DNA from: Vulcanisaeta distributa DSM 14429
GTDB taxonomy: Archaea > Thermoproteota > Thermoprotei > Thermoproteales > Thermocladiaceae
Assembly: GCF_000148385.1 (NCBI RefSeq)
Contig: NC_014537.1
Coordinates: forward strand, 150,001 to 182,000
Direction of reading: 5' to 3'
DNA: 32,000 nt
The notes beneath the pieces are model-generated. The model was not told the DNA's origin and ran no database searches. It worked only from the letters and a program-made list of their open reading frames with translations. Each line of letters begins with the position of its first letter. Positions within the stretch are counted from its first letter, which is position 1. Positions 15,311 to 32,000 of the stretch are shown here, piece by piece. A program made the position numbers and the translations under genes.

Positions 15311-15356
15311 AAAGGGTGGTGCTGTTTATAACATTCATTGGTGGTTTCGCAACTCC

Positions 15357-16196: not shown

Positions 16197-16207
16197 AGAG
16201 CCTCACC

Positions 16208-16329: not shown

Positions 16330-16335
16330 AAGTGG

Positions 16336-17526
16336 GTGGGTGTGATGGCTGAGTGCACGCCTAGGATTAGGGAGGTCAGGTATTGGGATGAGGCGTGGTG
16401 GGAGGAGGGGTTTAAAGGCATTGACGAAGCCTACTCAAGGCTAAGAGGTCTACTAGATGCCGTTAAGGAGGTTGAACTCAAATTAACCGGCAGTGACCTA
16501 AGCCAGCTACTGAGGAGTCAGCAAATGAGGGACTTCACGATGAAGGTTATCCTGGGTGGTTTCAGGCAGGAATGCGTAAATAAAACGCTGAATGCCGACG
16601 ATGTTAAGGGGTGCTTTAACAGTAACGCCTTAGCTAGATTCTACAGGGAGGTCTTCGGAATAGGGTTAAGCAATGATGACATTGCAAAGTTCGTTAATGT
16701 AGCGCAGTATGTAGGGCTGGAGAAGGCTGGTGAAGGCTTGAGGATAGTGAGTATGAGGAGTTACGTAATGGATACTTTAAATGGTATTCTAACTAGCTTC
16801 ATTAACGTATATAAGGTTGCCGGGAGGCAGGTGCCGAACCCGATGAGGTATAATGTAGATAAGCCTGAGGATTTAGCCCAGGCATTCATAGACACTACCA
16901 ACGCATTACTTAAGCTTCTCCCACTCTACAACCCATTCACATTCTTCATACAGTCACTGGACTTCACGCCAAAGCCGTATCTAAGGCTAATGTACTGCGA
17001 TAAACTATTCAGCAGCGACGTAACGAACCTAATGGCTAAGTACGGGATTAGGTTAACAACACTACTGAAACCCAGCATTAGTAAGGAGCTTGATGAGGAA
17101 CTAGCCATAATAGGGCATGAGGAAAACAGCCTAGGAAGACACCTACTAGCCACAGTATGGCACATTTACGAATTAACGTATTGGCTTAAGGGTAAGGATT
17201 ATGTTAAGAATATCGATGATGAGTTCAGGAAGTACGTCGAAAAATACTCAATCTACCTTGACGAATTCTACAGAAGATTAACAGGCAGCGGCTTTGAGGG
17301 TGTATGTAGCATGATGCTAGATATTAATATTTATTATGGTAGTAATATTAATATATATGGTCGTAGTATATTTGGACGTGATGTATTCTCATTTAGTCGT
17401 CGTGGTTGCGGTGAAATTAGAATGTCGTTAAGTTATAGCGAATTTCTCGAGCTATTCTCGCCGTTGATGTTCCTTGGACTGATTTTTAGACACCCATTAT
17501 CCAATGAGATATTTACTGTTGGGTGA
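16336..17526 (+). CDS. hypothetical protein (396 aa), paralogue of 7170-8396 product
   Basis: Shares the 'NPF.FF...Y.R..Y.D' block with the 408-aa protein. GTG 16336 lies about 28 nt from the TATA-like 16304-16312, and ATG 16345 is an alternative start. The 3' end (about 17300-17526) is AT-rich and uses CGT Arg codons. Confidence 0.6.
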   Translation: MGVMAECTPRIREVRYWDEAWWEEGFKGIDEAYSRLRGLLDAVKEVELKLTGSDLSQLLRSQQMRDFTMKVILGGFRQECVNKTLNADDVKGCFNSNALARFYREVFGIGLSNDDIAKFVNVAQYVGLEKAGEGLRIVSMRSYVMDTLNGILTSFINVYKVAGRQVPNPMRYNVDKPEDLAQAFIDTTNALLKLLPLYNPFTFFIQSLDFTPKPYLRLMYCDKLFSSDVTNLMAKYGIRLTTLLKPSISKELDEELAIIGHEENSLGRHLLATVWHIYELTYWLKGKDYVKNIDDEFRKYVEKYSIYLDEFYRRLTGSGFEGVCSMMLDINIYYGSNINIYGRSIFGRDVFSFSRRGCGEIRMSLSYSEFLELFSPLMFLGLIFRHPLSNEIFTVG

Positions 17527-19388
17527 TTTGCATGAGTATTGAGGTTGCTGTTGGTGAGGTTGATGAGGGGGTTGTTAATGTTATTTATAGGCTTAGGGGT
17601 GGTGAACAGGTCGGTGTCTCCGGCTTACCCACGTCTCAGGGGGTCCTGGAGTATGGGTTTAAGGTGCATGTGGCTAAGCCTGACCTAGGCCTGCCTAAGG
17701 AGCCTAGGCTTGAGATCACTCCACTTGACTCCACCACACCATCCATAACACCCATTGGGCTTAGGCCGGGTAATCCTGTTGAGGCCCTCTTCATCATACC
17801 TAGCGGTTTATTGATGAGTGTTAATATTAATTACGAAACACCCCAATTACCTCAATCATCACTCCTCAGCCCCATACCCAGTCTCCCGGCAGTTAATGTT
17901 GAGTTCGTTAAGGAAGCCACCGTTGAGTTGGTTGGGCTTGAGGACCTGCTACCAAAGATAAGGCCTGTATTAAGTCCTCAGTTGGGCGCCGTTGATGTCA
18001 GTTTCATCGAGGTTGGTAGGGTTGGCTTAAACCTAGACCCCTCAACATCAATCCTTCCAAGCGGTAGACCGAGTATGTTAAACCCGGTTGAGGTTTCCTT
18101 CCAGCAGGCAATGGCTTCGATGGACATCTCAACCACAGTACCCCTAACCGAATCGCAGAGGCAGGTCAATACGACAACATTAACTGAAGAGGAGATTAAG
18201 ACTGCCCAGGCGGTTGAGGAAGTATACAGTGCCGAGGAGCACCCAATTCTAGGCCTAGGCAATGTAACCCCGGAGAAGCCAGTAATTATACTCGCCCATA
18301 GGCCTAAGGAGGAGAAGGCTAACTACATTGAGTTTCTTAAGAGGTTTCTTAGGGAGGTTTATAGGGTTAGGGTTGGTGGTTTGCCGGCACCTAAGCATGT
18401 GAGTAATCCACTGGATCTTAGGCTCCTCCTCCCAATCGAGGTTGGTGCCGGCGGTAGGTTATTCATCCTAGACCTAACCAGCGAGTTGGGAAGCCATCCT
18501 AAATTCGATACTGACCTTAATAGGCTTAGGGATAGGCTTAGGGAGCTATTCTCACAGGGCTTCGGCTTCATAGTACTCTACGGTGATGAGGATTCGTTGA
18601 GGAGTATTCGAGGGAGCCTGTGGAGGGAGTTCAACATATGGAGGCCCGTTGATGTTTCAATAATGGGTGAGGATGTTGGGCTTCTCAAGCTCCTAACTCA
18701 CTTAATGTGGGGTGATGTTGAGGGTTCGGTTAGGGATGAGGCTGGCGCAGGTCTAGACGTGGTGACTGTGTACCTAGAGGATGAGTTTTGGAGAAGACTT
18801 GGGGAGGTGGCTAGGGACTTCAATGTCCTGGTTAAGGTTAGGCCAAGCTCAAGCCCTGATGAGGGTGGTAGGGAGTCTATGACGCACTACCTAACCAAGG
18901 CATTCGTAGTTAGGCACCTCATCGATGAGTTGAAGAGGGAGTTCATGGAGAGTGGGTTGGGTGAGGACGATGCGTTTAAGAAGGCATTAGATTGCGTTGA
19001 GACTGAGTACCAGTACCCGTTGGAGAAGGAGAACATTAGGCTTGACATCTATGTCAAGCAAAATTGCGGTTCAAGGCTAAGTGGATTGGCTGTGGAGGTC
19101 GAGACCCTATACGGCACTGGGACCGTCGTTCATAAGTTGCTGGAGACCGTGGAGTCCAGGGTTGGTGCTGGTGTTAAGGGGCTTTGGGTTGTGGTCCCAA
19201 ACCCGCAGGCCGTGATTTACCTACCGCTACTGCTTAGGCTTAGGAACCACGTGAGGAGTAAATATGGTGACATTGAACTCTACACACTCGATATACACAA
19301 CGGCAAGTTAGTGAAACTAACCGAGGTAGCAAAGAAAATACTAAACACAGTTAAGGAGGTGAGCGAAAAACAAAAACAACAAACATGA
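17523..19388 (+). CDS. hypothetical protein (621 aa), paralogue of 8387-10060 product; P/S-rich N-terminal region, conserved C-terminal domain
   Basis: GTG 17523 overlaps the upstream stop (GTGA), and ATG 17532 is an alternative start. See the shared blocks listed for 8387-10060. Confidence 0.65.
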   Translation: MICMSIEVAVGEVDEGVVNVIYRLRGGEQVGVSGLPTSQGVLEYGFKVHVAKPDLGLPKEPRLEITPLDSTTPSITPIGLRPGNPVEALFIIPSGLLMSVNINYETPQLPQSSLLSPIPSLPAVNVEFVKEATVELVGLEDLLPKIRPVLSPQLGAVDVSFIEVGRVGLNLDPSTSILPSGRPSMLNPVEVSFQQAMASMDISTTVPLTESQRQVNTTTLTEEEIKTAQAVEEVYSAEEHPILGLGNVTPEKPVIILAHRPKEEKANYIEFLKRFLREVYRVRVGGLPAPKHVSNPLDLRLLLPIEVGAGGRLFILDLTSELGSHPKFDTDLNRLRDRLRELFSQGFGFIVLYGDEDSLRSIRGSLWREFNIWRPVDVSIMGEDVGLLKLLTHLMWGDVEGSVRDEAGAGLDVVTVYLEDEFWRRLGEVARDFNVLVKVRPSSSPDEGGRESMTHYLTKAFVVRHLIDELKREFMESGLGEDDAFKKALDCVETEYQYPLEKENIRLDIYVKQNCGSRLSGLAVEVETLYGTGTVVHKLLETVESRVGAGVKGLWVVVPNPQAVIYLPLLLRLRNHVRSKYGDIELYTLDIHNGKLVKLTEVAKKILNTVKEVSEKQKQQT

Positions 19389-19616
19389 CATCAAACTGCC
19401 TAATCCTTTCTATCCTACGTCATCATCCGCATCAAACCCACAAACCAGCAACCCTGCTCAATAAAATACTGCATACTCCCCGTAAACCAGGGTGGTTTAC
19501 ACAGAGAATAATTAATAATCAGCATAAAAGAATAATGTGTGGTAAGATCATTATAGTGTTTATTGTGATGGTTGATGGTTCGCGTTATATATTAAATTTA
19601 AGGATTTAAGGAGTGG

Positions 19617-20666
19617 CTAGTGTGGTTCTTTAGTGAGCGTAAGTAGGGTGTTTGGTACATTTGATGGTTCTAGGTTCTCAATTTTCATTATCGTGTTTAT
19701 TAACTTAGTGAGGTCGTAACCCTGTGTAAATGGTATGTAGTGAATGAATCCTTTACGACTCTCTGTATATATCATGGAGCGAGGTATTACGTTATTACTA
19801 AATAATCTAAATAATGATAAAAACTTCATGGTATTTACTAATGAAATCATAATTAGCAGTCTTATTATTGATTCGTACGTGCCATCACTCAATTGCTCAT
19901 CACCGTACGTCGCTGACGAGACGACGCCCATGTACCTAAAGCCCTTATTCAATATTACCATGGTGACAAATTTAACGGGTTTCACAATTGAAGAATCAAC
20001 TTTAAGTTCAGTTGTACTGTATATGTATAAGTTCGATCCATCATGCCTGCACCCATCACCCCCCTGCTTAAGTACATTGAATAACTCCTCGTGTTTCTCG
20101 ATCTCACTAAGCTCTATATTTTCATAACTCGATGCAAATGCTTCTCCTAAAATGACAAGCCCAAAGTATTCAGTATTATTTTGATGATAATAAGGATTAT
20201 AATGGTATTCCCTGGCTAAATATTTACAATTTATAACTCTAGGAATTGCGTTAATAATGTTAATAATTTTATTGGTATTTTGAGCATTGGTCTCAAAGCG
20301 TGAAAGCAATAGGTCCATTCCTGACAATGTGCCGAGATCTCTCGGTAGTATTACCGGTTTAAAATAACTCAGCTCATTCAGTATTTGATTATTAATGTCA
20401 TACAATGTACGCTTAATGGCACTGTAATTACTCAGTTTTAATTTATAAATTCCCTTACCACTTCTTTCAATCAAATCTGCCTTTACCAGCCTTTCTAATA
20501 ATCTACCCACTGTACCTTTACTTTTTACGCTGTACTTTTTATGAAGAAACTCAAAAATCTCTTTAAACGAAGCGCTGTAATCAGAAGGTTTAGAACTTAA
20601 GTAATCTAAAACGTCTATCTCCTGCGCCCTTAACCCACTGGTCACACCTGCCCTCTTCCTTACCAT
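19617..20666 (-). CDS. wHTH transcription regulator with about 270-aa C-terminal domain (TTG 20681 also possible)
   Basis: 'DVLDYLSSKPSDYSASFKEIFEFLHKKYSVKSKGTVGRLLERLVKADLIERSGKGIYKLKL' fits a wHTH pattern. ATG 20666 lies about 26 nt from the TATA 'TTATAAAAA' (20690-20698). It is divergent from the 20775+ operon. Confidence 0.65.
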   Translation of the reverse strand: MVRKRAGVTSGLRAQEIDVLDYLSSKPSDYSASFKEIFEFLHKKYSVKSKGTVGRLLERLVKADLIERSGKGIYKLKLSNYSAIKRTLYDINNQILNELSYFKPVILPRDLGTLSGMDLLLSRFETNAQNTNKIINIINAIPRVINCKYLAREYHYNPYYHQNNTEYFGLVILGEAFASSYENIELSEIEKHEELFNVLKQGGDGCRHDGSNLYIYSTTELKVDSSIVKPVKFVTMVILNKGFRYMGVVSSATYGDEQLSDGTYESIIRLLIMISLVNTMKFLSLFRLFSNNVIPRSMIYTESRKGFIHYIPFTQGYDLTKLINTIMKIENLEPSNVPNTLLTLTKEPH

Positions 20667-20687
20667 AACATGTTTGCGCAAGAAATG

Positions 20688-20757
20688 TATTATAAAAATT
20701 ACGCGCGAACAGCACGAACACCATAGAACGTAATCCAGTTCGCGCTAAAAATAACTC
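20688..20757. promoter_or_regulatory. divergent promoter pair with 8-bp inverted repeat and helically phased GAAC repeats
   Basis: TATA-like elements are at 20690-20698 and 20745-20754. 'GCGCGAAC' (20703-20710) and 'GTTCGCGC' (20738-20745) are inverted repeats. GAAC occurs at 20707, 20716 and 20726 (spacing 9-10 bp), and GTTC at 20738. Confidence 0.45.
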
Positions 20758-20774
20758 GGGGTAGAGCCAGCACT

Positions 20775-21650
20775 ATGTTGGTGAGCCAGATGGGTCAGGT
20801 GGAGTTAGAGGGTGTTGATGAGGTCCCGTTAAAAACAGGTCTCGAGTGGGTTCCGGAGGAGGGTGTTGAGTTTAAGGGGCGTAGTGGGGTTGATTGGCAT
20901 GGTGGGTTCTGTGAGGGCATGGTGTATGACGTACTCGCCTATTACAAGCCGTATACGCACAATAGGGATTGGGGTATTTACTATGTGGTGCCGAGTATCG
21001 CCAATGATTTAGAGAGACTTATTGAGACTATGTATCATCAAGGCATTAATGAGGAATTGATAGCATTAACGGTAGCCATATACCCAAGCTTAATAACAAT
21101 ACATGAGGTTTGCCACCACACTCTCGAGAATGTAAGGAGGTTAATGGGGCTAAGAAACATCTATGAATCACATGATGAGGGCTTGTGCGAGTATACTGCG
21201 TTCAAATTAATTGAGGGGTCGGGTATTGCCCATCCATACCCGCTAGTAGCTTTGCTGAACCCGTTAACGCCCATGGACATTCATTTCCATGGCGACCACA
21301 TTCACGTAATAACGAGGTTTGGGGACTTCGTAATACCATTCCCAATATCAATACGCTGGCGTTGGGGAGTTAGATATCCACTAATGGTTAGTGGGGGTGA
21401 TGTTAGGAGGGCGCTTACCATACTCTATAAATGGTGGGGTAGGGGTAATGACCCCATTTATAGGCCTAGAATAAGCAATAACTATACCGCGGAGTTCCTG
21501 AGGAATTACTGGCTGCAATTGAGGGGTGACTTGGTACCATTCATGGACCACGCACTAACAAACAAGCCAGTCAAGGAGAGCCTATGGACAAAACTCAACA
21601 CTGACGATAAAAGAATCAGCATAATTACGAAATGCGGTGATAAGGCATGA
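20775..21650 (+). CDS. HExxH metallopeptidase-like protein (291 aa)
   Basis: 'TIHEVCHHTLE' (HExxH at 21102-21116) is followed by 'HDEGLCEYTAFKL', which resembles the HExxH...E..A..FA layout of ImmA/IrrE-type (M78-like) peptidases. It is a paralogue of the 5993-7186 product. Its stop overlaps the next ATG as ATGA. Confidence 0.65.
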   Translation: MLVSQMGQVELEGVDEVPLKTGLEWVPEEGVEFKGRSGVDWHGGFCEGMVYDVLAYYKPYTHNRDWGIYYVVPSIANDLERLIETMYHQGINEELIALTVAIYPSLITIHEVCHHTLENVRRLMGLRNIYESHDEGLCEYTAFKLIEGSGIAHPYPLVALLNPLTPMDIHFHGDHIHVITRFGDFVIPFPISIRWRWGVRYPLMVSGGDVRRALTILYKWWGRGNDPIYRPRISNNYTAEFLRNYWLQLRGDLVPFMDHALTNKPVKESLWTKLNTDDKRISIITKCGDKA

Positions 21651-24600
21651 TAAACAACGAAGAAACAATACTTAAAAACGGGATTGAAATAAATAACAAA
21701 ATGTCTAAGTCTCTCCCCTGCTCGCCTTGGATTGATTATACTAAGGCCCATGAAAATATTCGTAATGAATTAGAGAATACCATAACGAACTACGTAATAA
21801 AGCAGGTAAAGGGTATACGAACGCCCGTGATCGTGGCCCCCTACGGCTCAGGAAAAACAACGCTTCTAAGGCACTTACTATGTTATTCAATAGGGCAGGG
21901 TATACCTGCCATAAAGATAAACTTACTTGATTTCGTAAGTTTCCTAGAGTCGCAAAATATTAGTGATATAAATGAGGATAACCTTATCGGCTATATATCA
22001 TTATTTTGTACTAAAGCGATAGAACAAACAATTAACTGTTTGCAATCAAGTGGACAAAACTGCTTATCTTATGTTAGGAGTATTATTGATGAATTTAGTA
22101 CCATAAACATTAATAAGGATATTGCAATTGAAGTGTTAAGTAAATTCCTGAAAACTAAAGATCAAAGGTGTGTACTGCTTATTGACGAAATCGAGGAGGG
22201 TTACGAACATCTAAGGAAGATTGTAAGATTCGGAACAACGCCTTTCAGGGGAATTTTTGACTTGGTATATCAGGGTTTGCCAAGAATATTCCCGATTCTC
22301 GCGTTTGGACCATCATCGATTTACAGCGAGATTGTTTCTAACGCTGGCTCATGGAGGGTAGTCTCGTATGTAATACCGATGATTATGCCAACAAATATTA
22401 CGCAAAGGGTTACGAATTTGTCTCCGTACATTTCTAACTTAATTTGGTGGATAGGTAAGGGTAGACCTGGGCATGTTGATAAATTATTACAGATGAAAAT
22501 ACATGTTGAGGCTCAGAATGCATTGACTAACTGCCAGGGTATACTAGAGACAGATGCTGTGAAGAACCTGCAGGGTACATACGTAGTAGGCAATATACCG
22601 TACATTGATCAAGCAGCCTACAGGAGAATAGAAACAAGCTTAAATAATGATGAAAGAAATCTCTTCCGCATCTTATCAGTATTAGTGGGTCCTGTTCCCG
22701 AGTCTATGCTGAGCAAATGTATTGATATGAATAAAATAAAGTATAGCAAATTACCAGAGTATTTCATAAAATCCACACAGCTTATTAAGGTTGATGATGC
22801 CTTAAATATTCTCAAGAAGGTGCTCCTAAACCTTGGCTACACAATAAATGATTTTGCTAGAGACATACTTTACGCATTATTCTATTCATGGAGTGATCAT
22901 GATATGATGATACTCGATAAGAGGGGCCTAACCGAGTTGATAGGTATTGCTAAGGATATGGCAATCGAATTCTATCAAAACGACCTATTCAATGCATTAA
23001 GTAAACTGGACCTGGACGCACTATATACGGAGTTATTAAACAGTAAGAGAGATAGTAATGAGCATTACTATGCCCTAGCACCCTTAACGACCCTTGGCGC
23101 TATTTATCCCCCTGTTTTGTTAATGCCATTAATTGGTTGCTGTAAAGAAAAATCGCTTGATGATTTATATAGAATATTTGACAAATTTACAATAAAAGAT
23201 TTACTCAATCTAAGTGATAGACTTCAGGAAGAAATAATTAATTATGCCCACATGAGAGGTATGGACAATGAGACAATCCAAAATATGAATAAGTATAAAG
23301 TAGTTTTTGTATTAAGCAAATACATAAAGAATGATGAATTCATAAAACAAATTAAGAAACTCCTCACTAATGACTATATACATGGTATAGTATTTATACC
23401 ATTGCCTTATAATGAGGACCCAAGCTCGATAGTAAGCTCACTAAGAGAGTTGTGGCAGGATTACATTGATGTTGGATTAATCGACATTATGTACCCAAGT
23501 GCTCGCGCAATACTGTTCTTAATGGGACTTATTTATAATAAGTACGTAAGATGTGACGTTAAGTATACGGATAGAGAATTAGGTATGTATGATCAATTCA
23601 TGAGGGCTATAATTGAATTACTAAAAGAAATCATTATTAATAGATTACCGTCAAAAAGAAATAAAATAGCTCAAGCCATAGTATCCAGCAGAACCACTGA
23701 AGCAATTAAAGAGGAGCTTGAAAATATACTAAGTGAAGGATATAATAAAGTGGGAAGCGGAAAGGAAAGGTATTTACTCCTTCTCGCCGGCGCTGAACAT
23801 AGAAATATACTTGAGCAATATCTAAATACATTAATAGCAAAGAAAAGCGGCAAATATGCTTCATCAACAGGCATTATTGAAGATGTGGTAAAAAGATTTA
23901 AGGAACTTATTAATACATTGCATGATCATGGAATTGAAATAAAGCATGAAGTGACGAGCGGATTTGAAAGCTTTTTGGATAATGCCTGGGATTATTACGA
24001 TGACATAAGAAGCAGATGGGATCAAATATATGATCAGATCCAAAGCGGAGACGTATTTAATAAAGTACTCGAGGTATTAAACGATTTATACACGATTTCA
24101 AACTTGCCGAAGGAGGCGGAGACTCGTCAGTTAATTGAGGAGGAATTTAATAAAATAACGAAGAAAGTGATCGGCAACAATGAAAATAATATTAAAAGTT
24201 TAATTACTTGGATAGTACTACAAAAAATGCTCAATAAACATCCAGATAAGCTACCCTTTAATGATGAAGAGGAATGTAAAGATTCCACGGAAGAATTAAG
24301 CTCTTCTCTAAGTAAGTTAGGGGATCTCGATAATATCGTTAGTGACATAGATAAGATACTTAATAAAATTGGAAAATACATTGATAATAAATCGGTAGGG
24401 ATATTAAATGAACTAGAAAAAATTAAAGAAATAATAAATAATACTAAAGATAGTATTAATGAGGTATCGCATTATATAGAAGATTGCACTAATCGGCTTG
24501 TGGCTTTGAACACAGTAGAGAAAATGTGGTTTTTAGAATTTATAATGAGAGGCTGGAGTTCAGGGAGAAAAAGAAATAAAGGATTAATGGCTAACTTGCT

Positions 24601-25006
24601 CGATAATATTTCTAGTATAATTGATGATATTAATTCTTCACTACTTAATAACTTAAAGACTGTATTAAGGAATTTGAATGATATTGAAGCAGATCTTGAA
24701 GAACTTAAAAAATTAACCGCAAGTGATAATGAGTTATCATTAGGAAGCGTATTCGCGATAGCGGATTATGGTGCGTTAATAGAGCGTTATAGAAAAGACC
24801 TTGAGCAGGTATTGTTGAATTCAGGTACAATTCCTGAATTAGCTCAAAAGCTAAGTATACTAAAAGACGCCGTTAATGACTTAGCAAACACAATTAAAAC
24901 TATTAGGAGGGACAATGAGGTACTAGCGTTAATAAAAAAGATTGAATATAATATTAATAGGTTATCTAAGGAGATTCAAGAAATTGAAGGAGGTGAGATT
25001 TCATGA
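21647..25006 (+). CDS. large P-loop (AAA+/STAND- or BrxC-like) ATPase with about 800-aa helical/coiled-coil C-terminal region, 1119 aa
   Basis: Walker A 'APYGSGKT' (21836-21859) and Walker B 'CVLLIDEIEEG' (22172-22189) lie about 110 aa apart. 'GKGRPGHVDKLL' is sensor-2-like. The C-terminal third is K/E/N/I/L-rich with heptad-like character. Confidence 0.8.
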   Translation: MINNEETILKNGIEINNKMSKSLPCSPWIDYTKAHENIRNELENTITNYVIKQVKGIRTPVIVAPYGSGKTTLLRHLLCYSIGQGIPAIKINLLDFVSFLESQNISDINEDNLIGYISLFCTKAIEQTINCLQSSGQNCLSYVRSIIDEFSTININKDIAIEVLSKFLKTKDQRCVLLIDEIEEGYEHLRKIVRFGTTPFRGIFDLVYQGLPRIFPILAFGPSSIYSEIVSNAGSWRVVSYVIPMIMPTNITQRVTNLSPYISNLIWWIGKGRPGHVDKLLQMKIHVEAQNALTNCQGILETDAVKNLQGTYVVGNIPYIDQAAYRRIETSLNNDERNLFRILSVLVGPVPESMLSKCIDMNKIKYSKLPEYFIKSTQLIKVDDALNILKKVLLNLGYTINDFARDILYALFYSWSDHDMMILDKRGLTELIGIAKDMAIEFYQNDLFNALSKLDLDALYTELLNSKRDSNEHYYALAPLTTLGAIYPPVLLMPLIGCCKEKSLDDLYRIFDKFTIKDLLNLSDRLQEEIINYAHMRGMDNETIQNMNKYKVVFVLSKYIKNDEFIKQIKKLLTNDYIHGIVFIPLPYNEDPSSIVSSLRELWQDYIDVGLIDIMYPSARAILFLMGLIYNKYVRCDVKYTDRELGMYDQFMRAIIELLKEIIINRLPSKRNKIAQAIVSSRTTEAIKEELENILSEGYNKVGSGKERYLLLLAGAEHRNILEQYLNTLIAKKSGKYASSTGIIEDVVKRFKELINTLHDHGIEIKHEVTSGFESFLDNAWDYYDDIRSRWDQIYDQIQSGDVFNKVLEVLNDLYTISNLPKEAETRQLIEEEFNKITKKVIGNNENNIKSLITWIVLQKMLNKHPDKLPFNDEEECKDSTEELSSSLSKLGDLDNIVSDIDKILNKIGKYIDNKSVGILNELEKIKEIINNTKDSINEVSHYIEDCTNRLVALNTVEKMWFLEFIMRGWSSGRKRNKGLMANLLDNISSIIDDINSSLLNNLKTVLRNLNDIEADLEELKKLTASDNELSLGSVFAIADYGALIERYRKDLEQVLLNSGTIPELAQKLSILKDAVNDLANTIKTIRRDNEVLALIKKIEYNINRLSKEIQEIEGGEIS

Positions 25007-26274
25007 GTATTTCATTAAGTATAAAAGAGTATACTAATAAATTAAATAGTAATTATCAGCAAATTAAAAACTCCCTAAAGGAGTTAAACAATATTTTAGA
25101 ATCTCTAATGGAATTAATTTCATTGGCTAAAAAATTAAGGTTGAAAGTACCGCCTTTTCCAAGTATCGAAAAAATTGAATTGGATCAAAATAAATTAAGC
25201 AATGTTATTAATGGCTTAAGAAATTACTCCAATAATGTAATTTTGGTCATTATGAATCAATTATTGCCTGGCCTAAGTAATGATATTAATGATTGCGAAA
25301 TAATAACAGATATGTTAAATGGTACTAAAAACATACTTAAGGACTTTATTGATAGCGTGCAGGATTTATGGAAATATCGTAATGAACTTAAGTATTTACG
25401 CCAGTGCATCAAAGGGTATTGTGATCTTGTCACTAGGGTAATACATGATGGAGAACTGAAGGAGGAGGTAAAGGTATTGTCTGAGATATTCAGCATTAAG
25501 GATAAGCTTAATGGAATAAGCTTGCCTATTACGAAAGGGTTAAATCAATGCATAGATAATGTTATAAATAATGTAATAAAGGATTGCAATCTTCCTTCAT
25601 TTAACGATATCGAGAAGAGTCTCAAGAATATGCTTGACTTGCTCACGTATTTTGATAATATGATAAGTGTAGTTAATGGATTACGTACTTTGCAGTATAA
25701 TGAGTATTCACAACAAAAGGGAGATTATTGCCCTGAAATAGCGAAGATCTTTGATGATTTTATGAGCACCATTAAGGGACTTAATCTCAATGAGCTAACA
25801 TTAAAATGCGGTACACCTGAGGAATTAATAGGTCTCGTTAAAGAGATTGAGGATAAAAGGGATCAATATGTCAAGAATATACGAGATAGTCAAGCTCAGG
25901 TGATGAATTACTTAAACAGATTTAAAAAGGTATTAAGCAATAGTGAATTACGAGAAGAGTTTGAGAATACGCATAATTCGTTGGAAAAAATAACTAATCA
26001 ACTTATTACGGAGATATCCGGCAAAAGTGTGGAAGGAGAGAATATTAGACAGATATTGGATGAACTGCAGAATAAGTTAAACAGTATTTTACAGTTCATA
26101 TGTGAGAAGTTGATACCCGGGTTAGGATTGAAAGATGAGGAGTTTAAAGTAATAGTTGAATTAATCAGGAAAGGTGGAATCGCAGATTTTAAAGATTTAA
26201 GTGATGTAGGTCGTGACATAATCATCGAGCTTTGTGAAAAGGGTATATTGAGGTGCCAAGTAAGTTTGGGGTGA
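25003..26274 (+). CDS. coiled-coil protein (423 aa) with possible C-terminal wHTH
   Basis: ATG 25003 overlaps the upstream stop (ATGA). The sequence is N/K/E/L/I-rich and helical throughout. The C-terminus 'EEFKVIVELIRKGGIADFKDLSDVGRDIIIELCEKGILRCQV' is wHTH-like (tentative). Confidence 0.65.
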   Translation: MSISLSIKEYTNKLNSNYQQIKNSLKELNNILESLMELISLAKKLRLKVPPFPSIEKIELDQNKLSNVINGLRNYSNNVILVIMNQLLPGLSNDINDCEIITDMLNGTKNILKDFIDSVQDLWKYRNELKYLRQCIKGYCDLVTRVIHDGELKEEVKVLSEIFSIKDKLNGISLPITKGLNQCIDNVINNVIKDCNLPSFNDIEKSLKNMLDLLTYFDNMISVVNGLRTLQYNEYSQQKGDYCPEIAKIFDDFMSTIKGLNLNELTLKCGTPEELIGLVKEIEDKRDQYVKNIRDSQAQVMNYLNRFKKVLSNSELREEFENTHNSLEKITNQLITEISGKSVEGENIRQILDELQNKLNSILQFICEKLIPGLGLKDEEFKVIVELIRKGGIADFKDLSDVGRDIIIELCEKGILRCQVSLG

Positions 26275-26278
26275 GCCT

Positions 26279-29206
26279 GTGATTTGTTATAAGTTCGATA
26301 AGCCATTAATACCTTCTGTTGAGGAATTATTCCGTGAATGCGGTAAGGACGTTAATTTCATGAATAACTACATTATTAATAGTGTGCTTTCGTACATTGA
26401 AAGGAAAGAGCAGGATTTAGTGCTTGGAATGCAATATAATGATTGGGTAATCATCGACAGTAGCGCTAAGGACGAGATTAAGGAGCAAATAATTAATTAC
26501 ATTACTAAGTTTGCGATAGCTTGTAACGGGACTAATCGTAATAAGGACTATCTAAAGAAGGTGAGAGAGGAAGTTGATAGTAATAGGGTTGTTGAAAAGG
26601 CCCTATGCTACTTATATGCATTTGGCATATACGGTGACTGCATTAGTAGGTATTTGTTGATTAAACCCCCTGATGGTGATGAAGTACCTGACTATGAAAT
26701 CCCTGGTTTAGATAATGAAGTTGTTGAGAGGGCGAAGGACGTATTTAATAAATGCGTTGAGAAACTTAGTAAGTGGCGTGAGTATTGGGTGAGGAGTAGG
26801 TTCATAGAGATTGTTCGTGACTTATACCTACTCAAGCAGAGGTTCCCTGATAAGTCGGTGTTTGAGTCATACATGCTTATTGATAGGGTATTTGCATATG
26901 CATACCCACGTAATTTACCGCTTGGTGTTTACACGGTAAGTGACGTATGTGGTGATGGCACGTCAACGATTAACCTAAAGAAGTTAACTTACAGCTTCTT
27001 CAAGTCATACCATGATTACCTAATAGGTGCGGTAAATGAAAATATAGATGAGGAATTCGAAGAATTTTGGGAAATATTCTGTTATTTTCTACGTAAGGCA
27101 TTTAGTGATAGAAGATTCTATAGGTTTCAGATAAGGGGCGTTGAAACCGCTATTAAGAAATTATTGGGTATCTTCAATACATCCGAAAGCCGAGGGGCTG
27201 GTAAGATTGATTATTTAATAATTGCCGCACCAACAGGTAGCGGTAAGACGGAGGTTATGGTATTAACAGTATTAATTGCTGCGCTGGCGAGAAAGATAAT
27301 CCTAATAAGGCATGGACTTGATGATGAGAAAAACGTACCGATCGCATTAATGGTATATCCAAGGAGGTCCCTAGCCAATGATCAAGTATCAAGATTAATA
27401 GAGTACCTGAGTATAATAAATGAGAGGTTAAAGAACAAACTGCTGCTAACGATCAATTATACGGATATAAGAGACAAGAGAGAGTATGAAGATGCCATTA
27501 ATTCTGTTAAAGTCGGCGCAAAGCCAGTCCCCTTGCAGCTTAAGTATGGGGTTCTAGCATCCTTAATTAAAGATGGTGAGAATTATTATGTCGAACTTAG
27601 ATTTTTGACATGCCCCAGGAGGTTCACGTCAGGGTCTGGCAGTATTTATCCGAGATTTAGGGTTGTGAGGAGGGGTGATAGGTACGAGGTTGATGATTCG
27701 GTTGTGTACTGTGGTGATAATGCATTGAGTTTCATAGCCCTAACTAAGGACAGGGTTAGGGAGAGATTGGGCGATATTCACATAACAATATTCGAAACAC
27801 TTAGGCATAACTTATTTTCGAGAAGTTTCGAGAATTTATTCGGCATCTGTAGAAAGGCTGGGGATAACAAGGTGGTGTTTGATTACCCACTGATAATAGT
27901 TCTTGATGAGATACACACATACACTGACATACCTGGTGTAAGGTACACTTACATGCTTAGGAGGGTTCTAAATAGAATTAGGTATTATAGCGAGAATTGT
28001 AATGGGGATGGGTTACCAGGTAATCTCGTAATAGGCATGAGCGCAACAATACCTAATGCGGGTGAATTCCTTAGTAAATTATTCTTTTCCGAGGATATTG
28101 AAAAGAATATTAATGACTACCTAATTACTGTTGATGATGAGGAAACAATACCTCTCGGTAATGAATACTTCATAATAACGGTACCGACGCGTGGGGCTCC
28201 CGTGGATGCGTTAACGGTATCTATACAGACGATAATGAATACATTTTACAACATACCATCCATACCAATAGATAGTGGATATGTAAAGAAGGGCATAGTC
28301 TTCCTGGAAGAATTCAATGTATTGAGGAGGATGAAAAGGGAACTTTGGAATAGGGAGCAGGGAGCAATATATAGAGTTGTTGAAATTAACAATGAAGAGG
28401 TTGCTTTTGGTCTTCAAGACTTGAGAAATCCAAGAAATAGGTATTTTTACGAGGTAACACTGGAGGATTACGGTGATGATGCGAAAGTCGTCGATAATAT
28501 AAGAAGGGGTAAAATAAGCAGAGTTATTAGCGCTAGGTCGTGGCTTGATGGGGAGTTATGGTGGGGTTACATGCTAGATACTATAATCAATTACTATCCG
28601 AAGAATAACTTAAGTGATTACGTAACCACTAGATTTAACAGGGTTGTTGAGTATTCAAGTAGAAAGCGAGGGGATTTAAGGAGGGCCGATATAGTGGTCT
28701 CAACGAGTAGTTTAGAGGTGGGTGTTGATTATTCAGATGTTGTTTTAATATATCAACATGGTGCTCCCCCCAATATATCATCGCTCATACAGAGGGCGGG
28801 CAGGGGTGGTAGAAGGCTTTTTGAGAATCCGTTAATGAGGATTATAGTGGGTATTCAATTGTCGCCGGATCTACCGCATCAATCCTGGCTTTTCGAAATA
28901 TTTACCAGGGTCAAGGACTTAAGAAAGGCGATTGATTATGACAAGCTATTCCTGCCGAAAGCGAGTGAGGAAATAATGAAACAAGTGCTCGCTGAATTAG
29001 CCCTTGAATACTATGTATTGAATAACGGAAAGTTAACAAATAATTGGGAATGCAGATTAACTGGTTGGCTTAAGAAAAATAAAGAAAATATAATTAATTA
29101 CTCACAGTGGGTTTTCGCTAATGTTGAAAAAAGTAGGTTAAATAGCTTCATTGATGAGATAATAAATTACCTTGATAAAAATTGCAGAGATCAAAGTGGA
29201 AGATAG
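26279..29206 (+). CDS. SF2 DEAD/DEAH-box-type helicase (DrmA/Lhr/Ski2-like core) with about 300-aa unknown N-terminal domain, 975 aa
   Basis: Motif I is 'AAPTGSGKTE' (27224-27250), Ia 'VYPRRSLANDQ', II 'VLDEIHTY' (DEIH at 27905-27916) and III 'MSATIPN'. Motif V is 'VVSTSSLEVGVDYSDV' and VI 'QRAGRGGRR' (28790-28816). The GTG start lies 4 nt after the upstream stop. Confidence 0.9.
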   Translation: MICYKFDKPLIPSVEELFRECGKDVNFMNNYIINSVLSYIERKEQDLVLGMQYNDWVIIDSSAKDEIKEQIINYITKFAIACNGTNRNKDYLKKVREEVDSNRVVEKALCYLYAFGIYGDCISRYLLIKPPDGDEVPDYEIPGLDNEVVERAKDVFNKCVEKLSKWREYWVRSRFIEIVRDLYLLKQRFPDKSVFESYMLIDRVFAYAYPRNLPLGVYTVSDVCGDGTSTINLKKLTYSFFKSYHDYLIGAVNENIDEEFEEFWEIFCYFLRKAFSDRRFYRFQIRGVETAIKKLLGIFNTSESRGAGKIDYLIIAAPTGSGKTEVMVLTVLIAALARKIILIRHGLDDEKNVPIALMVYPRRSLANDQVSRLIEYLSIINERLKNKLLLTINYTDIRDKREYEDAINSVKVGAKPVPLQLKYGVLASLIKDGENYYVELRFLTCPRRFTSGSGSIYPRFRVVRRGDRYEVDDSVVYCGDNALSFIALTKDRVRERLGDIHITIFETLRHNLFSRSFENLFGICRKAGDNKVVFDYPLIIVLDEIHTYTDIPGVRYTYMLRRVLNRIRYYSENCNGDGLPGNLVIGMSATIPNAGEFLSKLFFSEDIEKNINDYLITVDDEETIPLGNEYFIITVPTRGAPVDALTVSIQTIMNTFYNIPSIPIDSGYVKKGIVFLEEFNVLRRMKRELWNREQGAIYRVVEINNEEVAFGLQDLRNPRNRYFYEVTLEDYGDDAKVVDNIRRGKISRVISARSWLDGELWWGYMLDTIINYYPKNNLSDYVTTRFNRVVEYSSRKRGDLRRADIVVSTSSLEVGVDYSDVVLIYQHGAPPNISSLIQRAGRGGRRLFENPLMRIIVGIQLSPDLPHQSWLFEIFTRVKDLRKAIDYDKLFLPKASEEIMKQVLAELALEYYVLNNGKLTNNWECRLTGWLKKNKENIINYSQWVFANVEKSRLNSFIDEIINYLDKNCRDQSGR

Positions 29207-29220
29207 ATGGTGATGAATCC

Positions 29221-31965
29221 ATGAGCACTCTTCAGAAGATAATTGAATCGTCTAAATTATTAAGAAATTACATACCTGATAGATTATTCGCCGAGTCAAA
29301 TTTGCCCCAGGTTAAAGTAGTGCTTGATGGCAAAGTCATTGCAGTAGAAGATGCATCATTGGTAGTCTCATCCTCTGGGTACATACCAGGAAAGCCCACG
29401 TATAGGGCATTACCAACAACAGGCACTTTCATACCCCTAGATAATAGCCGTTTTGACGAAAATATTAGGCCTATTATTACTCGAATTTCATATAATGATA
29501 GGAAATTGTATGAACCATCACCTGGTTATCCGAGTCGCTATAGTATTGATGAAATAGAGATTCCCGATGAATACAAGTATTTACTGTATTTACTTAAGGA
29601 GGTACTTAAAACTGATTATTTACCAATTGAATTTTATGCTCTTAGTAAGATTAACCCATTAAGATTTAGATGCCCAGCCAGTAAAAAGAAAAGAATATCT
29701 CTGGATAATACTCATTGGTTATTCTTTTCAAGAGCAAGAACCAATGTTGAGGTTACTAACAACATTAGTTTTTCACACTCATTTTATGCATACTTAGATA
29801 GAAGCAATTCATTTCCTAGGTTCTCGATTTATAACCCGCAGGGATTAATAAAGCCTATTAAGCAATATAATATTTGTGGAATACTTGATGCAGAGATTTA
29901 TACTGTTAAAAATGCATTTTACGGTATTTATGCTGTCGATGTATATGCGGTTTTAAAGGGCAAGTACGTAGTTGGCGATTCTAAAGGTGGGTGGTGTCGT
30001 TACACAATTAAGAGCTCCGATATAAAGACGCCTAGAGATAATACCAGCTCTACTTCAATGTATTGTATAAGCACTAAAAATGGCTGTAGATATAGTAACT
30101 ATTTCGTTAAGATTTTTGTAGACGGTGATCATAACAATTGGAATCCTGTAATACTTGGATACGAGATTAAAAACACGAGAATGCTCACGCTAGACATTAA
30201 GGATTTAATAAGAAAAATAGCCTCATCAATAGTCAATATCGGTGAAGTAGAGCAAGGACAGGACTTAAAGCTTGATTATGAATATAAAACCCTCAGCACA
30301 AATACTGCAGTAGTTAATCTACTAAGGCATTACCTATCTCATGACTTGGTAATAACGTATTACTTAACAAGGCTTGGCTTCACAAAGATCGATAAATACG
30401 TTAATCTTTCAATACTAATAAATGATTTATTCCTCGGTAATAAACTAACCGTGAAGTTGGAAAAGGACGATGTTAAGGATCTTGCTAGTGATATTATTAA
30501 TGATTTCATTAAATCATTTGATAAGGAAATAAGGCAGTCCTGGATATCATTATTACGATATGTATTATCCACGGTCAAAGGTGAGAGGTTAGAAACATAC
30601 CGTATATTTCGTGAATGTAAGAATAATAAAAATACTCAAAGATACTGTATTCCTCACGAGGAAGCGGAGAATATTTGGAATAACATAGAAAAGCGAATAG
30701 AAGGTATCTTAAAGAACTATAGTGAAATACCGAGTTACTTTGGGGTTAGGACTACTTATTGGTACGTTGGCGCTATTATTGATATCATAAAGCATACATT
30801 AAGTCATCATTTAATAAGAACTATTAGCACAAGATATAGTGTTAACCCAAGTAAACTTATTGAGTATTATTACGAAATGAGAGGAGACGCTAAGGTTTCC
30901 ATCATGGAAAGGGACTCTGGGGGTATTGGTGTATTAAATGTGGCCTTTGAGTCATGGGAAAAATCTGATAAGGAATTGAGGGAGAGACAAGTCGCTATTG
31001 AGGACCTCATACTATCCTTAGGTAAGTGCCTTGTCGGTACTCCTGAAGACTTACTGCACTTCGCGTTGCTGAATGATGATATTCGTGAAAGGTTATGTAG
31101 CGGTAAAGATAATGATGTAAGAGAGGGTATAAGGGAGATTATTAGGAGATTGAACATAATAGTTACCCCAGATGAGTTTGAGGAGACTATTAAGTTATGG
31201 AAATCAATATACGAGGAGGCTGATAGACTTACACGAATATTACGCAATGGGAATAATTACTTAGGTAATGAACCATGTAAATTATTAAGGGCTGTTCATG
31301 AGTTAAGACATGAACTGGAGAAGAAAATGAGGAGGTTTCCGGACATGGACGAATTGATGGCTTATATGCTCGAGAATATTGATGAATACTCCATACTTAA
31401 TGATTTGCTAACTAAGATGCTAGAGAGGGGGCTTAGGACCTCTGGCAGGTTTAGGGAATTTCTTCATGAGTTGTATGGAACGAATGATTATGTTAAGAGG
31501 TTCATAGGGGGTGTTAATTTTATCCTGAGAAGCAGAATACAGGACATCGATCATTTAAAGGAACTGGTGAGAAACAGTAATGATATCGTGTCAAAGTACG
31601 GCACTAAGGCGCTTGAGAAAATAACTGAATGTGTAGGTAAGCGAAGGGATGGTGATGATACGTGTAAAGCAGTTATACATGCATTGAAGCTTTTGGGTAG
31701 GGCACTCCGTGCGGTGTTAATGAGGATCTCGCTACTTAGTTGTAATGGTGCATGCGGTATGTGCTATGTGAATACTAAGTCATGCAGTAGGTTTGGCGCA
31801 CCCTTCATTCAGGCCAGGACACTTGATAGGAGGGTCCTTAAGGTACTTGCCTCCGAACTCGTTAGGCACATGAGCGATATCGTTAGGGATTACTACGGCG
31901 TTAATAAGGATGTTGATGTTATTGTGGAGCTTGGCGGTGAGCCCCGTACATTGAGGTGTGAATAA
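29221..31965 (+). CDS. DUF1998-like (DrmB/MrfA-C-terminal-like) protein with C-terminal Cys cluster, about 914 aa (ORF open from TTG 29182)
   Basis: 'HTLSHHLIRTIS' (from 30793) and 'ERDSGGIGVLN' fit the DUF1998 core as I recall it. The terminal 'CNGACGMCYVNTKSCSRFG...ARTLDRRVL' (Cys codons at 31741, 31753, 31762 and 31783) has the same layout as the DUF1998 Zn-cluster. ATG 29221 lies 15 nt after the helicase stop. Confidence 0.8.
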   Translation: MSTLQKIIESSKLLRNYIPDRLFAESNLPQVKVVLDGKVIAVEDASLVVSSSGYIPGKPTYRALPTTGTFIPLDNSRFDENIRPIITRISYNDRKLYEPSPGYPSRYSIDEIEIPDEYKYLLYLLKEVLKTDYLPIEFYALSKINPLRFRCPASKKKRISLDNTHWLFFSRARTNVEVTNNISFSHSFYAYLDRSNSFPRFSIYNPQGLIKPIKQYNICGILDAEIYTVKNAFYGIYAVDVYAVLKGKYVVGDSKGGWCRYTIKSSDIKTPRDNTSSTSMYCISTKNGCRYSNYFVKIFVDGDHNNWNPVILGYEIKNTRMLTLDIKDLIRKIASSIVNIGEVEQGQDLKLDYEYKTLSTNTAVVNLLRHYLSHDLVITYYLTRLGFTKIDKYVNLSILINDLFLGNKLTVKLEKDDVKDLASDIINDFIKSFDKEIRQSWISLLRYVLSTVKGERLETYRIFRECKNNKNTQRYCIPHEEAENIWNNIEKRIEGILKNYSEIPSYFGVRTTYWYVGAIIDIIKHTLSHHLIRTISTRYSVNPSKLIEYYYEMRGDAKVSIMERDSGGIGVLNVAFESWEKSDKELRERQVAIEDLILSLGKCLVGTPEDLLHFALLNDDIRERLCSGKDNDVREGIREIIRRLNIIVTPDEFEETIKLWKSIYEEADRLTRILRNGNNYLGNEPCKLLRAVHELRHELEKKMRRFPDMDELMAYMLENIDEYSILNDLLTKMLERGLRTSGRFREFLHELYGTNDYVKRFIGGVNFILRSRIQDIDHLKELVRNSNDIVSKYGTKALEKITECVGKRRDGDDTCKAVIHALKLLGRALRAVLMRISLLSCNGACGMCYVNTKSCSRFGAPFIQARTLDRRVLKVLASELVRHMSDIVRDYYGVNKDVDVIVELGGEPRTLRCE

Positions 31966-32000
31966 TGCTATGGATATGTAAGGACTCTAGTAGAAGCCTT
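31965..32000 (+). CDS. 5' end of a further operon gene (partial, truncated by window)
   Basis: ATG at 31965-31967 overlaps the TAA stop (31963-31965) as TAATG, and the frame stays open to the window end (MLWICKDSSRSL...). Only 12 codons are visible. Confidence 0.25.
   Translation, partial: MLWICKDSSRSL

Follow-up and report, generated by a model that had tools for sequence, protein, structure and literature searches.

A probable Dpd-like restriction module of the Thermoproteales in Vulcanisaeta distributa

The DNA analyzed here, called the window in the following, is a stretch of 32,000 nucleotides (nt) from the archaeon Vulcanisaeta distributa DSM 14429 (contig NC_014537.1, positions 150,001 to 182,000), and the element in question is the gene cluster at its right-hand end, at positions 19617 to 32000 of the window. 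The operon in this cluster is probably the restriction module of a Thermoproteales Dpd-like 7-deazaguanine restriction-modification system, to which genes for a winged helix-turn-helix (wHTH) protein and a HExxH protein have been added in Vulcanisaeta. Dpd is a bacterial defence system in which the host DNA is marked with a 7-deazaguanine base and unmarked DNA is attacked. A previous reading of the sequence alone had proposed an undescribed archaeal defence system for the same genes. This proposal had overlooked Dpd and could not be upheld, since DpdJ models are the best family matches of the helicase, and since DpdA, a transporter, and a second tRNA-guanine transglycosylase (TGT) are encoded past position 32000. 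As judged from homology, from which also its function is deduced, the locus belongs to the Dpd/BRIGADE/DISARM group of YprA-centred systems as a variant found in Thermoproteales and is not a categorically new system.

The assignment to a Dpd-like system is made because the locus continues with a phospholipase D (PLD) family nuclease with DpdK as its best family, a Vut_1 transporter, a DpdA protein that scores above the equivalog cutoff, and a DUF6884 domain, and because the aspartate residues of DpdA and the motifs of DUF6884 are conserved. Within the window, the helicase matches DpdJ and YprA best, the following 927-amino-acid (aa) protein aligns collinearly with the C-terminal part of DpdJ and contains a split MZB domain, and the large ATPase is predicted to combine an ORC/Cdc6 fold with a coiled coil, which is the architecture published for BrxC and equated with DpdH/I. 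The order and sizes of the genes parallel dpdG-H-I-J-K, nine genes co-occur in related loci, and their distribution is patchy. The modification module is shared with Salinigranum, and the second TGT is also found in the dpd island of Paenibacillus.

Gene order, the modification module, and conservation of the locus

All open reading frames (ORFs) were present at the coordinates listed below, and five complete genes plus the start of a sixth are tightly chained between positions 19617 and 32000. The view of the sequence-only reading that these are defence-type genes in one coupled operon is borne out, with a YprA-family helicase, its DUF1998 partner, a giant AAA+ ATPase, and a coiled-coil partner as components.

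20775 to 21650, plus strand: zincin-like protein with a HExxH motif, 291 aa; heads the operon only in Vulcanisaeta
21647 to 25006, plus strand: ORC/Cdc6-type AAA+ ATPase, 1119 aa, with about 470 residues of coiled coil at the C terminus; at the DpdH position
25003 to 26274, plus strand: coiled-coil protein, 423 aa, with a small conserved C-terminal domain; at the DpdI position
26279 to 29206, plus strand: YprA-family DExH helicase, 975 aa; N-terminal part of DpdJ, a separate gene as for DrmA
29221 to 31965, plus strand: DUF1998/MZB module, 914/927 aa, with a large helical insertion; C-terminal part of DpdJ, a separate gene as for DrmB
31965 to 32000 (first 36 nt), plus strand: PLD-family nuclease, DpdK/DrmC-like, 255 aa; end extrapolated to window-equivalent position 32732

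The overlaps and gaps between these genes agreed with the previous description, with the exception of one gap that is 14 nt and not 15 nt long. An ATGA overlap connects the HExxH gene to the ATPase gene (21647 to 21650) and another one the ATPase gene to the gene of the 423-aa coiled-coil protein (25003 to 25006). The TGA of the latter gene is followed by GCCT, a 4-nt gap at positions 26275 to 26278, and by the GTG start codon of the helicase gene at position 26279. The helicase gene ends with a TAG at positions 29204 to 29206, and the 14-nt gap from 29207 to 29220 separates it from the next ATG at 29221. An alternative TTG start at position 29182 would make the DUF1998 gene overlap with the helicase gene; the NCBI product has 914 aa, which corresponds to the start at 29221, and 927 aa refers to the longer form. 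The sequence TAATG at positions 31963 to 31967 joins the end of the DUF1998 gene to the start of the PLD gene. A PLD nuclease had been described as not visible within the window, but its gene starts at position 31965, and the expectation that the operon continues past position 32000 was correct.

The continuation of the locus was read in L001 and L002, two assemblies that encode an identical 927-aa protein and were found by an exact-sequence look-up. The stretch examined beyond the window comprised 12.5 kb with eight downstream proteins, among them the following ones, with positions in L001.

5998 to 6738 (window-equivalent 32724 to 33464), minus strand: Vut_1/YhhQ-type queuosine-precursor (preQ0) transporter, beside the PLD gene
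6726 to 8573 (about 1.5 kb past the window end), strand opposite to that of the PLD gene: DpdA::DUF6884 fusion, 615 aa, with DpdA and DpdC-type domains
Downstream, plus strand: wHTH protein, 218 aa, modification module
Downstream, plus strand: BrxD-like ORC-type AAA+ ATPase, 316 aa, with matches to BrxD and BrxC_BrxD models
10394 to 11308, plus strand: second TGT-like protein, 304 aa, modification module

The PLD protein possesses a single HxK...D...GSxN motif and was matched by Pfam PLDc_2 (7.9e-10), by DpdK as the best PADLOC family (2.4e-10, compared to 2e-6 for DrmC), and by NCBIfam DpdK (3.6e-8). The 615-aa protein reached 275.8 bits with the NCBIfam DpdA model NF041059, above the cutoff of 200, and 6.7e-76 with PADLOC DpdA, but only 32 bits with the archaeal tRNA TGT model, which has a cutoff of 350. 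DpdC, an enzyme of the DUF6884 family, turns dPreQ0 into dADG, and residues 403 to 577 of the 615-aa protein were matched by PADLOC DpdC models (1.9e-9) at positions 4 to 181 of about 312, which is the N-terminal half of DpdC only, and by Pfam DUF6884 with 30.5 bits against a cutoff of 30. The DpdA part retains the equivalents of Asp95, Asp130, and Asp256, which are essential in Salmonella DpdA (PMC10164549), and the DUF6884 part retains the two motifs of this family, CxxxK and [LI]SAxxG (PMC11701544), the latter as ISARYG. When the fusion proteins or their separate counterparts were compared (L001 6726 to 8573, L007 753 to 2849, L008 6683 to 8752, and L019 10001 to 12931), the TGT domain preceded DUF6884 in the Thermoproteales, DUF6884 preceded the TGT domain in bacteria, and both were encoded by separate adjacent genes in Salinigranum.

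Bacterial preQ0 insertion requires DpdB, which is a ParB/DndB-like ATPase. Neither the proteins of the window nor the eight encoded downstream matched DpdB, DndB, or ParB. The archaeal second TGTs, which are the 304-aa protein of L001 and its homologues in L011 and L013, contain Asp130 and Asp256 but no equivalent of Asp95, whereas the second TGT of Paenibacillus contains all three residues. Because the residue equivalent to Asp95, the general acid/base, is missing, the archaeal second TGT may be a non-catalytic partner, comparable to QTRT2 in its relation to QTRT1. The gene of the second TGT is followed by one for a 133-aa protein (L001 11354 to 11755) with a faint GIY-YIG match (E 0.052), which is kept at the same position in the Caldivirga locus (L014 17983 to 18378) with 30% identity.

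Besides the locus of V. distributa, six further distinct loci combine these genes: L009 from a metagenome-assembled genome of Vulcanisaeta sp. (on the same contig as L012), L014 from Caldivirga sp., L013 from Thermoproteus sp. CP80, and the hot-spring or metagenome loci L004, L010, and L011, with L004 recovered again from a second metagenome as L005. Nine genes are conserved, those for the ATPase, the coiled-coil protein, the helicase, the DUF1998 protein, the PLD nuclease, the DpdA::DUF6884 fusion, the wHTH protein of the 218-aa type, the AAA+ ATPase, and the second TGT. All nine were present in L004/L005, L009, L011, and L014, and eight in L010 before the fetched stretch ends. The Thermoproteus locus (L013, 2653 to 19158) contains seven of them and lacks the ATPase/coiled-coil pair. 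A 1484-aa P-loop protein encoded downstream of the PLD gene in Thermoproteus was considered as a substitute for the ATPase and rejected, since it showed no similarity.

The order and orientation of the modules differ between these loci, and a YhhQ-type gene is often located beside them. The two modules are always adjacent despite this variation and an amino-acid identity to the window proteins of 26 to 76%, which is good evidence that the restriction-like and the modification-like modules form one functional system. In the loci outside Vulcanisaeta, the modification proteins were much better conserved, mostly with 45 to 60% identity, compared to 26 to 50% for those of the restriction module. 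A pattern scan of 185,579 species, each represented by a single genome, yielded only three other carriers, all of them Thermoproteales; there are closely related Vulcanisaeta species that it did not detect. This indicates that the locus is accessory, and it agrees with the previous assumption that it is not a conserved core locus. A collection of viral contigs scanned with the DUF1998 protein and with DpdA contained no relatives.

Components of the operon and its surroundings

The 975-aa helicase was assigned to DpdJ by PADLOC with 3.1e-40 (135.8 bits), compared to 1.3e-12 (45 bits) for DrmA and 3.4e-11 for DruE, and DpdJ was also its best NCBIfam match (3.9e-34, 117.6 bits, model positions 150 to 529 of 1482). 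Pfam yielded DEAD (1.6e-13) and Helicase_C (1.7e-7), the best match among the PDB sequences was YprA/MrfA (6znp), and the helicase motifs GSGKT, DEIH, SAT, and QRAGRGGR are readable in the sequence.

The N terminus of the 927-aa protein aligns to residues 786 to 870, approximately, of DpdJ, as found with three independent DpdJ proteins and one PADLOC DpdJ model. Its C-terminal half aligns with residues 1235 to 1611 of the DpdJ-like helicase from Allocoleopsis with a probability of 33%, and a C-x-VG-x-x-ED-x-L motif as well as a Cys cluster at the end are common to both proteins. The DUF1998-like character that had been claimed for this protein was weak for the intact protein, for which Pfam MZB reached 14.8 bits (E=0.049, model positions 1 to 57). 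After excision of a helical insertion of about 240 residues, the match increased to 22.2 bits (E 2.3e-4) and covered nearly the full model, positions 1 to 79 of 80. Across 18 homologues, the cysteines C841, C845, C848, and C855 do not vary. The AlphaFold model was poor, with a pLDDT value of 57 and the first 320 residues, presumably the OB region, not modelled; Foldseek against the PDB gave noise, and a profile search against the PDB sequences gave no matches. From the alignments it is concluded that the 927-aa protein is a separately encoded, DUF1998-bearing C-terminal module of a YprA-type helicase, comparable to the DrmA/DrmB arrangement of DISARM. In the YprA/MrfA family, a DExH core is followed by an OB-CON-DUF1998 module with a 4-Cys cluster, and the 975-aa and 927-aa proteins together agree with this in their DExH core, their DUF1998 module with four invariant cysteines, and a presumed OB region.

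In the 1119-aa ATPase, which has a counterpart with 100% identity from Vulcanisaeta distributa, encoded on a contig of 2.37 Mb, the Walker A motif GSGKT (residues 67 to 71) and the Walker B residues D180/E181 are invariant, and the libraries returned P-loop-level matches only (mad8, nSTAND, AAA). Its AlphaFold model (pLDDT 82.8) shows an AAA+ head, followed by mixed alpha/beta and helical domains and by long helices from 642 to 1113 with a small beta-hairpin at 970 to 977. The best Foldseek matches of this model in the PDB were ORC/Cdc6 proteins (7jgr_G with 2.9e-4, and 2qby_A). BrxC has been described as having an ORC/Cdc6 AAA+ head, a mixed alpha/beta and helical middle part, a long coiled coil, and a small apical beta element (PMC12839542), DpdH plus DpdI have been equated with BrxC (Bell et al. 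2025, bioRxiv 10.1101/2025.09.15.676423), and DpdH has been described as an ATPase of the DNA-replication type (GATOR-GC preprint). As modelled, the 1119-aa ATPase shares this BrxC/DpdH architecture. Homology to DpdH was additionally searched for by hhalign against single proteins from the DpdH position and by hmmsearch with both profiles, and it was rejected, as Walker A alone was matched.

The ATPase family comprises only 43 members, nearly all of them from Thermoproteota. Homologues of about 900 aa that cover the N-terminal half are encoded in Hyperthermus butylicus (L003, 10001 to 12712) and Pyrodictium (P0022) without helicase, PLD, or TGT neighbours, which indicates that the family also serves other contexts in the Thermoproteota. 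The homologues of Hyperthermus and Myxococcales are located in unrelated contexts. The 423-aa protein gave only weak matches of coiled-coil type, among them DpdI with E 0.014. The gene of its homologue always directly follows the ATPase gene in L004, L009, L010, and L011, and its conservation is focused on the last 60 residues or so, ...LCEKGxLxCxVSL.

The sequence-only reading had counted the wHTH and HExxH genes as part of the system. Both occur in the Vulcanisaeta loci only, and the pair is thus a Vulcanisaeta-specific addition and not a part of the conserved system. The genes and the region between them are as follows.

19617 to 20681, minus strand: wHTH protein, putative regulator, lineage-specific, 354 aa if started at TTG; the ATG at 20666 is the likelier start
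20682 to 20774: divergent promoter region with short repeats and TATA-like boxes; putative operator

The divergent wHTH gene is present as had been described, with weak matches of residues 16 to 107, approximately, to MarR_2 (E 7e-4) and AbiEi (PADLOC 3.4e-5). A homologue with 31% identity at the same divergent position was found only in L009, the locus of the Vulcanisaeta sp. metagenome-assembled genome, and in none of the other Dpd-like loci compared. The array of operator-like repeats proposed for the intergenic region turned out to be modest. It contains an 8-nt perfect inverted repeat, GCGCGAAC-N27-GTTCGCGC, with GCGCGAAC at 20703 to 20710 and GTTCGCGC at 20738 to 20745, two tandem 9-mers at 20703 to 20720, and two TATA-like boxes TAAAAAT(T/A)AC (20693 and 20746), which both lie approximately 27 nt away from a start codon. 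It is plausible that the region is a divergent archaeal promoter with a putative operator, although the matches are so short that chance could explain them.

The HExxH motif is genuine, with H110, E111, H114, and E135 invariant in 29 aligned homologues. The family has 42 cluster representatives among 1.84 billion proteins, and no Pfam, PADLOC, NCBIfam, or PDB family was matched. Among the Dpd-like loci, the gene was found only in the window and in L009; distant family members are located in unrelated genomic contexts, as judged from two contexts that were uninformative. Its possible identity with DpdG, which has the same size of 291 aa and the same position, was rejected, since there is no similarity and DpdG does not contain a HExxH motif. 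The wHTH/HExxH pair may gate expression in Vulcanisaeta, as pairs of a repressor and a metalloprotease perhaps do in other defence and mobile systems.

The block is richer in A+T than its surroundings, as had been noted, with a G+C (GC) content of 0.367 at positions 19617 to 32000 compared to 0.481 at positions 1 to 19616. The described abundance of asparagine, lysine, and isoleucine applied to four of the five operon proteins (21 to 30% of the residues) and to the wHTH protein (23%) but not to the HExxH protein (16%); three proteins encoded left of the operon had 12 to 16%. The window and the related loci were also checked for tRNA integration sites, and none were present.

Other genes of the window are located to the left of the block. 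At positions 10336 to 13506 (minus strand), a HerA-like ATPase (677 aa; PADLOC HerA "Type III coevolved," 1.9e-60) adjoins a NurA-domain protein (264 aa), and this may be a separate defence- or CRISPR-associated pair rather than a housekeeping one. An AAA_5 ATPase of the dynein/McrB type (342 aa) followed by a 293-aa protein without matches (3952 to 5862, minus strand) could be a McrBC-like pair. Two trios of overlapping, apparently coupled ORFs are located on the plus strand at 5975 to 10060 (403/408/557 aa) and 16336 to 19609 (396/621/74 aa), the second of which stops 8 nt before the wHTH gene. The five large ORFs of these trios (403, 408, 557, 396, and 621 aa) had no Pfam or PADLOC matches.

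Proposed mechanism and alternative explanations

In a Dpd-like system composed of these proteins, the DpdA-type transglycosylase would swap selected guanines of the host DNA for preQ0, for which the archaeosine pathway or import through the neighbouring YhhQ-type transporter may be the source. The DpdC-type DUF6884 domain of the fusion may hydrate the nitrile, converting preQ0 into the 7-amido form (ADG). The absent DpdB is probably replaced by the BrxD-like ORC-type AAA+ ATPase, the 218-aa wHTH protein, and the second TGT. On the restriction side, the AAA+/coiled-coil ATPase and its 423-aa partner would load on DNA and act as a sensor or scaffold, the role that has been suggested for BrxC and DpdH/I. 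The helicase, split into the 975-aa motor and the 927-aa DUF1998 "canopy" protein, would then translocate on unmodified DNA, and the PLD nuclease would cut it. The wHTH/HExxH pair probably regulates the operon, similar to other repressor/metalloprotease pairs.

Evaluation of this assignment needs to consider a number of results that weigh against it. The presence of 7-deazaguanine in the DNA of V. distributa and the function of the system are both predictions from homology. The scores of the DpdJ, DpdK, and DUF1998 counterparts are low in relation to the respective thresholds: the NCBIfam equivalog cutoff for DpdJ of 800 bits is far above the 117.6 bits of the helicase, the PLD protein reached 33 bits on NCBIfam DpdK against a cutoff of 100, and the 22.2 bits of the MZB match are just below the Pfam gathering cutoff of 24.2 even without the insertion. 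An hhalign comparison of a 24-member alignment of the ATPase family with 20 DpdH sequences yielded a probability of 0.6% and covered Walker A only, none of the 24 family members matched a DpdH or BrxC model when hmmscan was run against PADLOC, and the DpdI match of the 423-aa protein was not significant. The ATPase/coiled-coil pair is dispensable or replaceable, as the system of Thermoproteus sp. CP80 lacks it. Neither the window nor the next 12.5 kb yielded DpdB, DpdD, DpdE, DpdF, or DpdG; for DpdD to DpdG, there were no PADLOC or NCBIfam matches except for generic matches to DpdF in the Helicase_C region. The GC content of the restriction module (window 20775 to 32000) is 31 to 42%, compared to about 49% for the modification module (L001 6000 to 12000), which is similar to the rest of the window, and this gap may reflect separate histories of the two modules or different evolutionary rates. 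Finally, the YhhQ-type gene is interrupted by one in-frame stop codon in L001.

The first alternative is a DISARM-like system, in which the helicase, the DUF1998 protein, and the PLD nuclease would be DrmA, DrmB, and DrmC, and the TGT genes would belong to an unrelated tRNA-modification cluster. The separate genes for helicase and DUF1998 protein, which are typical of DISARM (Bell et al. 2025), and the DrmC match of the PLD protein and the DrmA match of the helicase given above would agree with this. Nevertheless, it is unlikely. Searches of the window and of all related loci gave no DrmMI/MII methyltransferase, DrmD, or DrmE, the helicase scored 135.8 bits as DpdJ compared to 45 bits as DrmA, and the 615-aa protein with its 276 bits as DpdA is far from the cutoff for an archaeal tRNA TGT and is fused to a DNA-binding DpdC-type domain. 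Moreover, the TGT genes remain next to the helicase genes across the rearranged loci. The previous exclusion of canonical DISARM, Druantia, and BREX was confirmed by the hidden Markov model and PADLOC searches that included the genes beyond position 32000, and also the absence of a methyltransferase from the window was confirmed and extended to the 12.5 kb beyond it.

The Dpd-like system could alternatively be a decaying or partly inactive remnant in this strain. The L002 assembly contains the same two-piece call of the YhhQ-type gene as L001, so that two independent assemblies show the in-frame stop codon, the gene is intact in related loci (197 to 216 aa), and it may be a pseudogene in V. 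distributa. The absence of DpdB and the second TGT without the Asp95 equivalent could also be taken as signs of decay, but both recur in all related loci and are thus traits of the family. All large ORFs are intact, the helicase motifs I, II, III, and VI and Walker A/B are kept, the HxK of the PLD protein, the three aspartates of DpdA, and the CxxxK and SAxxG of DUF6884 are conserved, and the start/stop overlaps that indicate translational coupling are preserved, which makes decay of the system as a whole improbable.

The genes could also serve DNA repair or chromosome maintenance instead of immunity, as a helicase and nuclease module of the YprA/MrfA type whose coiled-coil ATPase would be SMC-like. 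This might be suggested by the repair helicase YprA/MrfA as the best PDB sequence match, by the HerA/NurA pair in the same window, and by the loose resemblance of the coiled-coil ATPase to SMC or Rad50, but it is very improbable in view of a patchy locus found in three other species and with about 30 to 40 homologues in 5.8 billion proteins, an AT-rich and compositionally foreign block, the linkage, resembling that in restriction-modification systems, to a PLD nuclease and a DpdA that modifies DNA, and an ATPase fold of the ORC/Cdc6 AAA+ and not of the ABC/SMC type.

Beyond the assignment to a Dpd-like system, a wider proposal can be made, the chances of which appear to be somewhat short of even: the Thermoproteales loci may represent a distinct, unclassified lineage of YprA-based base-hypermodification immunity. 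Its writer would be DpdB independent and would put 7-deazaguanine into the chromosome of a hyperthermophile; the catalytic DpdA::DpdC fusion would act in it together with a second TGT, probably non-catalytic, with an ORC-type AAA+ ATPase, and with a wHTH protein. A Thermoproteota-confined AAA+/coiled-coil pair with BrxC architecture and no detectable DpdH homology would direct the split helicase and the PLD nuclease against unmodified DNA, and the Vulcanisaeta operon would be further gated by a new HExxH protease family and a wHTH repressor.

If the assignment to a Dpd-like system is true, 7-deazaguanine marking of genomes extends to hyperthermophilic Thermoproteota. The ATPase, its partner, the split helicase, and the PLD nuclease would be a natural "minimal" restriction set, reduced in Thermoproteus to the helicase, the DUF1998 protein, and the PLD nuclease. 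Together with an insertion machinery free of DpdB, such a set would help to define the essential parts of Dpd, and the thermostable components could suit structural work.

Comparison with known systems

Dpd has been described as bacterial in the searchable literature, with archaeal relatives (BRIGADE) confined to halophiles (PMC10164549; Bell et al. 2025), and the roles of DpdD to DpdK are still unknown (PMC10164549). In the Enterobacter cloacae pPOL9A cluster, the order is dpdE-F-G(291 aa)-H(1068)-I(282)-J(1478)-K(176)-D, beside dpdA and dpdB. The operon in the window follows the order from H to K, with HExxH protein (291), ATPase (1119), coiled-coil protein (423), helicase and DUF1998 protein (975+927), and PLD nuclease (255). 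The locus as a whole shares with the canonical systems of Salmonella Montevideo and E. cloacae pPOL9A a DpdA, a DpdC-type DUF6884 domain, and a YhhQ-type gene for preQ0 supply. The gene of a DpdJ-like YprA helicase also precedes that of a DpdK-like PLD protein in both, and directly upstream of the helicase are genes for a P-loop ATPase with about 1100 aa and for a small protein of helical type. In contrast to these systems, it lacks DpdB, D, E, F, and G, DpdA and DpdC are fused, and the helicase is split. Vulcanisaeta has also kept the 4-Cys cluster of DUF1998, which was lost in canonical DpdJ (Bell et al. 2025). A second TGT, a BrxD-like AAA+ ATPase, and a wHTH protein are additional, the large ATPase has no detectable homology to DpdH, and the host is a hyperthermophilic archaeon.

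Two bacterial islands resemble the locus in further respects. The plasmid of Allocoleopsis/Microcoleus PCC 7113 encodes a DpdA-DUF6884 fusion and a DpdJ-like helicase with the MZB Cys cluster, followed by a PLD protein, and Paenibacillus pART37 encodes a DpdA-DUF6884 fusion, VUT, a second TGT, a P-loop protein of about 1055 aa, DpdJ, and DpdK. Unlike in Vulcanisaeta, where DUF6884 is C-terminal, this domain is N-terminal in both islands, their helicases are unsplit, and Allocoleopsis retains a DndB/DpdB-type protein.

BRIGADE is Dpd-like, has been reported only in Halobacteria, and usually contains two unsplit YprA helicases of about 1800 aa and of the ARMADA-like type (Bell et al. 2025). The plasmid locus of Salinigranum was taken as BRIGADE-like because it fits the published description. 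It is likewise archaeal, with the order large ATPase, small protein, YprA helicase(s), and PLD protein, and the modification modules of Salinigranum and V. distributa match each other in the TGT (4e-20), the DUF6884 protein, encoded by a separate gene in Salinigranum (3e-13), the BrxD-like ATPase (1e-17), the protein similar to the 218-aa wHTH protein (7e-5), and the second TGT (2e-5). On the other hand, V. distributa has one split helicase that matches DpdJ best, a Thermoproteales host, no preQ0 biosynthesis cluster in the locus, and an unrelated ATPase family. No mention of these loci was found in the papers and supplements searched; "Vulcanisaeta" and "Thermoprote*" are absent from the searched supplements of Bell et al. 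2025, and the tree given there may still contain the loci.

The resemblance to BREX concerns the predicted BrxC architecture of the 1119-aa protein and the matches of the 316-aa ATPase to the BrxD and BrxC_BrxD models. PglZ, PglX, and BrxA/B are absent, and the 1119-aa protein has no significant BrxC sequence match. In comparison to DISARM, neither the window with the 12.5 kb that follow it nor the related loci were found to encode a methyltransferase or SNF2 protein, DrmD and DrmE are missing, and the mark of self would be a 7-deazaguanine base instead of methylation. Common to both is a YprA-family helicase and a DUF1998 module encoded by two neighbouring genes and followed by a PLD gene. 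The locus would thus join a DISARM-style split helicase to a Dpd-style modification, which fits the proposal of one YprA-centred ancestor for both systems.

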